Made by a program: the position numbers and the translations under genes. A DNA stretch of 62,647 nucleotides, the filler included, from Rhabdomonas costata (Eukaryota): the NCBI GenBank assembly GCA_019059605.1. It is 17 parts of 17 records of this genome, joined end to end, with 100 filler letters (N's around TTAATTAATTAA, not from the genome) between each part and the next. Parts side by side here need not be neighbours in the genome. Positions count along the whole stretch, not along the records: positions 14,721 to 18,295 come from JAHMHO010000705.1; 16 more parts are not named here. The stretch is one strand, 5' to 3'. The notes below the pieces were generated by a model. The model did not search any database, had not been told where the DNA came from, and saw only the letters and a program-made list of their open reading frames with translations. This document shows positions 16,945-17,955 of this stretch, piece after piece (the stretch's first letter is position 1; every line of letters starts with the position of its first letter).

Positions 16945-17955
16945 GAAGTTAGCACTGCAACATGGAGAGCCGCGGAGACGCACAATTGGATCATACACGC
17001 ATACACAACGCAGTTGTACAATAAGTTTAACAACGACCTCAGGCACTTCAACCAGCTTCCTCAGTGGCATGCGTACACACGAGCTCTGCATCACACGCTT
17101 CAGAAACTTCCTACTCTGGCGTCCTTTCGAAATGAGTGCGGCACCACGGTGGTTTGGCGGGGGCAACACAATAACCTGACCTTGGACGAGCTCTTTCAGT
17201 TATACAGTCCTGGTCGGGTGGTGGGCTTCGCCGGAGTCCTGAGCACCTCCATCTCCGAGCCACGAGCACGAGGTTTTGCCGGCGGAGCTGGGCTCCTTTT
17301 TAAGCTTCACAGCAAGTCAGGCCGTTACGTGCGGCCTTTCTCAGCATACGCCACCGAAGAAGAGGTCATGCACAATGTGCTGACTTTCTGGAGGGTGGAC
17401 GGTTTTACCCCACCCACCAGGGGCAACCCGCCCACGATTGAGATGACCGAGGTGGAGCGCTTCGACACCCGAAACAGACCCAAACTGTTGTGGGTGGACG
17501 ACCAGTGGCAGCAAAACGCGGAGCTTCGAGTGAACTTTCGCGACAGTGGAGTGGTGTTGCACTGGCTTTCCTCCACGTCTGAGCTTGAGCAGTGGGTGCG
17601 GGTGAACCCGGGCGCCTTGCATCTGGGCCTGGACTCCTTCCGCGTCATCACGGACATGTCACGCAAGGGGGAGGACCCCGCCAACCATGAGGCGCTGGAT
17701 CGTGGTGCTGGGGCTCGGCTGGTACGCCGGCTGCGGCAGCTGGGGTACCGGGGCCAGGTGGTGGTGTTTTGCTCCGACGTGGGCAATGCGCGGTGGCAGC
17801 TGGGGCAGCTCAATGTCCTCGAGAATGTAACTGTCCTGCGCAACGGCGCAGAGGCGTGGAGATGGGGCAGATTTCAATCTAATAGGGACGCTCTTTATGC
17901 TTCTGTTGTGACGGCTTTAGGCTTGATCTTGGCTGGCGTTGTCTCAATACTTTGA
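16945..17955 (+). CDS. NAD:arginine-type mono-ADP-ribosyltransferase (R-STS-ExE, VIP2/C3/ExoS-like) fused to a receiver (REC)-like domain and a C-terminal transmembrane anchor; intronless
   Basis: IIHAYTTQLYNKFNNDLR (YT...N..LR helix), VVWRG (R at 17158), VLSTS (17242-17250), FSAYATEEEVM (ExE at 17356-17364). Then KLLWVDD...VITDMSR...GAGARLVRRLRQLGYRGQVVVFCS (receiver-like), then ALYASVVTALGLILAGVVSIL*. Confidence 0.85.
   Translation, partial: EVSTATWRAAETHNWIIHAYTTQLYNKFNNDLRHFNQLPQWHAYTRALHHTLQKLPTLASFRNECGTTVVWRGQHNNLTLDELFQLYSPGRVVGFAGVLSTSISEPRARGFAGGAGLLFKLHSKSGRYVRPFSAYATEEEVMHNVLTFWRVDGFTPPTRGNPPTIEMTEVERFDTRNRPKLLWVDDQWQQNAELRVNFRDSGVVLHWLSSTSELEQWVRVNPGALHLGLDSFRVITDMSRKGEDPANHEALDRGAGARLVRRLRQLGYRGQVVVFCSDVGNARWQLGQLNVLENVTVLRNGAEAWRWGRFQSNRDALYASVVTALGLILAGVVSIL

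Follow-up and report, generated by a model that had tools for sequence, protein, structure and literature searches.

The open frame at 16945-17955 (+) carries an R-S-E (ARTC) ADP-ribosyltransferase (ART) domain followed by a divergent receiver-fold (REC) domain, and is read here as the C-terminal half of a gene of ~666 codons that begins at ATG 15955. Judged from sequence, such ART-REC proteins are an old, widespread eukaryotic family, which appears to be undescribed. The combined account, that the frame is half of an ART-REC family gene, that REC would act as a cis switch in intact members, that this copy is disabled and that its tail arose by read-through, was considered about evenly balanced when taken as a whole. 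The value of the locus lies in the family, and the copy in the window (the whole stretch of Rhabdomonas costata DNA that was analyzed, 62,647 nt of ~3.6-kb contigs placed end to end) is a poor representative, probably disabled and with a private tail. The gene lies on a contig at 14721..18295 (G000:C705, 3575 nt, GC 0.547). On the adjoining contig (18915-21000) lie the exons of a spliced gene for a calcineurin-like metallophosphatase (PF00149 match, E 9e-8), unrelated to the ART-REC gene.

The ART and receiver-fold domains

The frame comprises 336 codons and is bounded by stops at both ends. Motifs VVWRG (R72), STS (residues 100-102) and TEEEV (E138-x-E140) were located in it, followed by LWVDD (D185, D186), ITDM (D237) and, at the C-terminus, a hydrophobic stretch. 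No in-frame ATG occurs before 17368 (residue 142), which lies 3' of R72, S100-T-S102 and E138-x-E140, and the earlier ATGs at 16962, 17069 and 17132 are all out of frame. The initial annotation had described an intronless ORF with R, STS and ExE; the motifs are present, but the ORF is not complete, being stop-to-stop with an ATG only at residue 142. Read as a whole protein, its ART would not be translatable as assembled, with stops and frameshifts upstream and the first Met after the catalytic residues.

The ART domain spans 16978..17457 (+, residues 12-171), with R72 at 17158-60, STS at 17242-50 and E138-x-E140 at 17356-64. The Pfam ART profile (PF01129) matched residues 12-155 with 42.9 bits against a cut-off of 22.3 (E 4.6e-11). 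An AlphaFold2 model of the 336-residue frame was built from a 76-sequence alignment (pLDDT 90.9, pTM 0.76), and its residues 1-174 matched R-S-E ARTs at rmsd 2.5-3.0 over 152-161 aligned residues, the best being 4xzj (Z 16.6, rmsd 3.0, 161 aligned). Catalytic columns of the family were largely intact (R in 62/67, S in 55/72, and the two E in 68/75 and 67/75). Membership in the R-S-E clade, as first annotated, is thus upheld by the Pfam score, the motifs and the fold match.

The window gene resembles ART2.2 (1gxy), Vis (4xzj), the Tre1-type PAAR toxin (6dre/6drh), ExoS/T, HopU1 and C3 in fold (Z 13.6-16.6) and in its R, STS and ExE motifs, but shares ~20% identity with them, and those entries, as listed, have no C-terminal receiver domain. 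R-S-E ARTs such as vertebrate ART2.2, Vis and ExoS/T are secreted, injected or GPI-anchored, whereas 76/79 ART-REC family proteins had no signal or TM segment by hydropathy. Eukaryotic mono-ARTs are placed among bacterial toxin ARTs in a section of PMC3417536. ART loci number 30 or more in the genome (30 of 80 candidates), an R-S-E expansion (L008-L037) in which L010, L015-L017 and L021 are long single-frame ARTs with TPR-like C-terminal repeats and L018 has an in-frame TAG.

The receiver-fold domain occupies 17473..17880 (+, residues 177-312), with D185-D186 at 17497-502, D237 at 17653-55 and the family-specific residues R240 and E243 at 17662-73. Over 25 receiver structures matched model residues 177-317, with Z between 10.6 and 12.4 (2rdm, for example, at Z 11.7 with rmsd 3.1, 117 of 124), and the canonical positions aligned, which agrees with the earlier description of a receiver-like domain with an acidic pair and an Asp at the phospho-acceptor position. 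Conservation was high across 75 members (W183 73, D185 72, D186 73, D237 67, R240 72, E243 69, G256 72); so conserved a site is likely functional. REC was as conserved as ART (median identity 29% vs 27%). An acidic REC residue was lost in 7/52 members with an intact ART, and loss of ART motifs was not associated with loss of REC motifs (Fisher p 1.0).

Like canonical receivers (PF00072), the domain has a (beta/alpha)5 fold, and an acidic pair and beta3 Asp that align with the genome's own receivers (hhalign prob. 69.5, E 4e-5, 82 columns). Beta4 ends in T/C/S (C276-S277 in the window copy; T 36, C 26 and S 4 of 73 in the family column), which may correspond to the Thr/Ser of canonical receivers. 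The domain differs from them in failing the Pfam threshold (22.1 bits in the best-scoring member against 30.2), in an extra helix before beta3, in the family-specific motifs FR[IV][IV]TDMxRxE and AG, and in its place C-terminal to the enzyme, the canonical receiver being N-terminal to its output domain. It also has no Lys-Pro at beta5: column 298 is T in 52/71, K occurs anywhere in 296-300 in 11/75, and the window copy reads V-T-V-L-R-N there, with no Lys. Searches with REC gave no match in NCBIfam or PADLOC, and the Atlas search gave leads at 0.88 only (a rotifer cluster; bacterial Response_reg, 14-33%).

Family breadth, architecture and origin

A HMMER search of 1.84 billion representatives returned 114 hits at E<=0.001, with ART then REC in 83, REC only in 9 and ART only in 22; the domain profiles for this count were built from 76 of those same proteins. 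A word-index homolog search with the ORF confirmed 0 of 3878 candidates. Among 30 proteins looked up, 8 carried an organism label, all eukaryotic (Paramecium, Tetrahymena, Bolivina, Nonionella, Adineta, Didymodactylos, Marasmius and Jaapia), and the source record of one further protein names it a 'CheY-like chemotaxis protein'. ART-REC proteins range over ciliates, foraminifera and rotifers. A motif scan of metagenome stretches confirmed 22 of 73, with eukaryotic neighbors (myosin tail, LIM, cathepsin, MORN), and a short GT-AG intron was seen at the ART/REC boundary in the four metagenome loci inspected. Rotifer-like metagenome contigs (L066-L067, L079-L080, L084-L085) carry tandem ARTs (ART-REC, ART-TPR-LIM, WWE-ART), and in some of them a short intron falls exactly at the junction of the ART and REC domains.

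N-terminal partners, scanned in 64 of the 114 proteins, included ubiquitin plus Hint, PDZ, MIB-HERC2 and IBR. The same REC precedes a PARP domain in L004 and P0089 (PF00644, E 3e-8 and 5e-8), and follows helical/EF-hand-like regions, with no ART, in fungal and other proteins. L004 (486-1856, G000:C3951) is a single-frame REC-PARP gene with the layout of P0089, and both group in the REC tree. A locus on a 934-nt contig (L065, G000:C39088:478-804) is similar to the fungal REC protein P0091 in the latter's helical/EF-hand-like N-terminal half (E 7e-4) and matched no Pfam family. Contigs C705, C17170 and C3951 were the only ones in the genome to carry this REC. ART and REC distances co-varied (rho 0.46, 62 proteins, 0/500 permutations). 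In the ART tree, where the window ART sits on a long branch, the REC label was clustered (13 changes vs 42.8 when shuffled), which may reflect a single origin or more.

No description of an ART-receiver fusion was found in the literature searched, in keeping with the first annotation, which knew of no characterized ART-REC-TM protein; the supplementary domain architectures of PMC8195603 and PMC9503650 may be relevant to how new the fusion is. Among the closest described systems is a ciliate one. Dassa et al. in 2004 are said to have reported BUBL proteins that end in an ART domain, and ciliate ART-REC members have ubiquitin and Hint before ART-REC (P0024 of Tetrahymena utriculariae, P0033 of Paramecium sonneborni); the family would add the missing C-terminal domain to these ubiquitin-intein-ART proteins. 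A portion of PMC8616854 describes the BUBL (ubiquitin-like/bacterial-intein-like) loci, and one title in its reference list links them to ADP-ribosylation. The window gene differs in having neither ubiquitin nor Hint, and that portion of the BUBL text (PMC8616854) makes no mention of a receiver.

It had been proposed from the lack of introns that the gene may have been acquired horizontally, and bacterial contamination of the contig was named as a refuting outcome. No intron is evident in 16945-17955, and the best fold matches are bacterial toxins, but the latter is because those are the solved structures, and 17/30 of the genome's ART loci lie in open frames of at least 250 codons, so the absence of introns does not point to recent transfer. 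The paralog and a third REC gene are on other contigs of the same genome, the contig GC of 0.547 is within the window range, a eukaryote-type acceptor lies 5' of the ATG in both copies, and all named relatives are eukaryotes, as are the neighbors of the metagenome loci. The same conserved-motif scan, an exact-pattern scan of limited reach, confirmed 0 relatives among 10 prokaryote genome hits and 22 viral contig hits, and phage records gave no match. Contamination or recent transfer from bacteria is not supported, and was considered very improbable.

Probable disruption of the window copy, and its hydrophobic tail

Assignment of the frame to a longer gene was made because reading continues unbroken in a paralog from the ATG equivalent to 15955; the frame is collinear with the paralog's continuous frame, whose start is ~1 kb upstream. 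The paralog is found on 2 contigs, C1276 (L003) and C17170 (L002), which are probably one gene. L003 is a single open frame of 391 codons that extends into ART, aligns to the window from ATG 15955 and has 78% DNA identity to the window copy. The likely true start opens a frame at 15955..16503 (+), 182 aa as assembled and ending at TGA 16501-16503, whose product is homologous to the paralog N-terminal region and has no Pfam family. A pyrimidine tract with a CAG acceptor (15906..15926, +) ends 28 nt before the ATG; the paralog shares this arrangement (~28 nt), as do tubulin genes of the same genome upstream of their ATGs, and we infer a candidate cis or spliced-leader trans-splice site.

Upstream of ART, a conserved unit (16591..16914, +) has 75% amino acid identity to the paralog. 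By eye it shows a beta-alpha-beta-GS-beta-alpha look with a GS turn, and its likeness to TRADD-N/SEA was kept as a resemblance because searches and a model of the N-terminal half lent no support. Those searches gave no Pfam family (E<=10), an Atlas best of 0.79 and 0/97 homolog candidates; hhalign of the unit against two GSV-bearing homologs gave a probability of 0.2, and a single-sequence model of the half (pLDDT 40) gave generic helical matches only (Z<=8.1). A GSV-turn unit also precedes ART in P0007 and P0020, with no measurable similarity to 16591-16914.

Two gaps, of 1 nt after 16489 and of 2 nt after 16588, interrupt the window copy when it is aligned to the paralog, and a TGA lies directly 5' of its ART (16942..16944, +) where the paralog has a sense codon. 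The segment between the two indels (16489..16589, +) contains in-frame TGA 16501 and TAG 16519, with dN/dS 1.23 (32 codons). Over 625 codons dN/dS was 0.34 (bootstrap CI 0.27-0.43), and 0.215 in REC; both copies were therefore under constraint for most of their history, and any loss of the window copy must be recent. In a quick tree of REC, the paralog branch was short (0.028) next to that of the window copy (0.16). Where the two copies differ in REC, the paralog was closer to the family consensus 14 times vs 5 (5 ties, p 0.064), and at differing ART sites the fit was even (17 vs 14). The catalytic Arg is kept in the window copy, whereas paralog contig C17170 has Trp at that first catalytic position. 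The stop codon of L002 sits inside GTAAG, which could double as a splice donor. No internal stop was present in 29/30 ART matches of the genome.

From these comparisons the window copy was judged probably disabled, a pseudogene being the likeliest and a fairly probable status: it would be a duplicate that lost its function recently and carries two indels plus a nonsense codon 5' of ART. Expression of the copy intact, with small introns removing the stops or with the breaks being amplification or assembly errors, was thought distinctly less probable; it would yield a protein of ~640-666 aa with a C-terminal membrane anchor, near the picture first drawn for this DNA. Low dN/dS and the intact catalytic triad speak for it, as do in-frame intron candidates over every stop: 75/78-nt GT-AG or 87-nt nonconventional candidates over 16501/16519, and 27- or 30-nt nonconventional ones over 16942 (the 30-nt candidate at 16934-16963). 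At the first two stops, however, such candidates were at chance level (387/842 and 1374/3370 control positions), and the candidates are collinear with paralog coding sequence. The 27-nt candidate (16919..16945, +) is an in-frame hairpin enclosing the TGA, of -17.2 kcal/mol (paralog -4.4), and fits, with motif pairing 1.0, the genetically defined Euglena nonconventional-intron code N3CDG...CH'GN5-6|R, CTG-CAG included, as given in a section of PMC12501133. An equally strong hairpin candidate, at a strength threshold picked after seeing the 16919-16945 case, covered 26/3937 control codons, and any well-paired one 329/3937. The 27-nt length is nevertheless below that of the shortest E. gracilis nonconventional introns in the tabulated part of PMC11170887 (30 and 36 nt), and the tubulin loci inspected (n=4) had GT-AG introns only.

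Over ~10 nt, contig ends across the window are rich in G/T on the 5' side and in A/C on the 3' side, which suggests primer-derived ends from whole-genome amplification, and sequence errors are possible in an amplified library. An error account needs three independent errors within 460 nt, and the long REC branch of the window copy also stands against intact expression. The two indels compensate each other and flank the most divergent 100 nt, a pattern that random decay does not predict. Rescue of the copy as a tail-anchored protein by new micro-introns made from exon sequence was rated improbable. A GT(16497)-CAG(16588) intron was rejected, being 92 nt and out of frame, as was a 90-nt GTG-CAG intron over the TGA that would delete the conserved Y-T of ART helix 1. 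An alternative genetic code was also discarded: the stops are both TGA and TAG, TGA also terminates the ORF, and the indels are unexplained by any code. The 16898-17179 frame was dismissed as an N-terminus, as synonymous third-position changes against the paralog follow the ORF frame instead.

The tail (17881..17955, +; 24 residues and a TGA stop) is private to the window copy. The C-terminal hydrophobic helix described earlier is there (19-residue Kyte-Doolittle 2.21; helix 311-335 in the model), but as a conserved anchor it did not hold up: a TM-like tail was present in 0/79 homologs with a complete REC (median extension after REC 3 residues), the lone tail score above 1.6 among these being the downstream PARP of a REC-PARP protein. 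The paralog stops three residues past REC, where its similarity to the window collapses. T content was 39% in the tail vs 40% in downstream DNA and 20% in the coding body, and dN/dS was ~0.85-1.0 in the tail and beyond. With a private tail of non-coding-like composition, tail anchoring was set aside as a family trait. Equally hydrophobic stretches made up 28/662 of the overlapping T-rich stop-free stretches in the window (33/5400 overall). Most simply, the tail would have arisen by read-through: the ancestral stop would have been lost and the frame would continue into T-rich 3' DNA. A short stretch 3' of the paralog stop resembles the window tail, and the tail may instead be an ancestral feature.

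Predicted control of ART by the receiver-fold domain

In the ART-REC family, an R-S-E mono-ADP-ribosyltransferase is directly followed by a divergent receiver domain of CheY-like type, with which the protein ends. In the proposed mechanism, intact members would act in protist defence or stress signalling as soluble cytosolic effectors that use NAD; the ExE motif predicts Arg-directed transfer, and the variable N-terminal modules (ubiquitin/Hint, PDZ, MIB-HERC2, IBR) would provide targeting. REC would be a cis switch working through a Mg2+/acyl-phosphate-type site (DD and D237), probably with the invariant Arg (R240) in place of the missing Lys. Phosphorelay control of ART is plausible, but the Lys on which canonical phosphorylatable receivers depend is missing family-wide. 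The host genome gave 53 canonical receiver and 95 HisKA matches, some possibly bacterial as the contigs were unscreened, so phosphoryl donors may exist. Complex prediction for the ART and REC domains, in which the alignment was not used, scored 0.00 and is evidence for neither side.

A metabolite-binding or hydrolytic module of cREC type was weighed as a possible, though less favored, identity for REC; it would sense or process ADP-ribose or some other phosphorylated nucleotide, and NAD-consuming effectors would gain from it a sensor or a means of self-protection. A section of PMC9503650 describes cRec domains as Rec-related, with two active-site aspartates and a link to ADPr cyclic-phosphate processing, and REC is like them in its receiver-related fold, aspartate active site and ADP-ribose context. 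Absence of the canonical Lys, the invariant R-x-x-E after the Asp, altered Asp positions in L004 and the pairing of one REC domain with two unrelated ADP-ribosyltransferase clades (R-S-E and PARP) all agree with such a module. Against this, the best structural matches of REC are ordinary response-regulator receivers, and proteins without an ART, namely fungal and other helical/EF-hand-like ones, carry the domain too. Among the Pfam matches listed (25 of 29 families), none of the 37 members of alignment A4 matched cREC at E<=0.1, and 6/37 gave weak Response_reg matches. REC is moreover fused to ART or PARP in eukaryotes, unlike cRec, which is found in RNA-repair operons.

Returning to the cis switch, a broader form of it was put forward tentatively, as an unlikely but testable extension. 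The unnamed receiver-fold domain (W-V-D-D ... F-R-I-I-T-D-M-x-R-x-E ... A-G) might be a eukaryote-wide, dedicated immune or cell-death effector switch, with an Arg-assisted Asp site replacing Lys. It might then gate ARTs of both the R-S-E and the PARP type, as well as helical effectors, in ciliates, foraminifera, bdelloid rotifers, basidiomycetes and Rhabdomonas costata, though this too is doubtful. If true, phosphorelay or nucleotide sensing would be joined directly to ADP-ribosylation in eukaryotes, an animal lineage included. Protist and invertebrate R-S-E ARTs are numerous, and a conserved receiver-fold module offers a testable way of keeping them off; the same module, found separately on PARP domains, offers a testable control mechanism there too. 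Among the structural matches of REC (residues 177-314) was PDB 28tm_A, an 'uncharacterized Rossmann fold protein from Homo sapiens' (Z 11.5, rmsd 2.7, 110 of 113), whose score was level with those of ordinary receivers.
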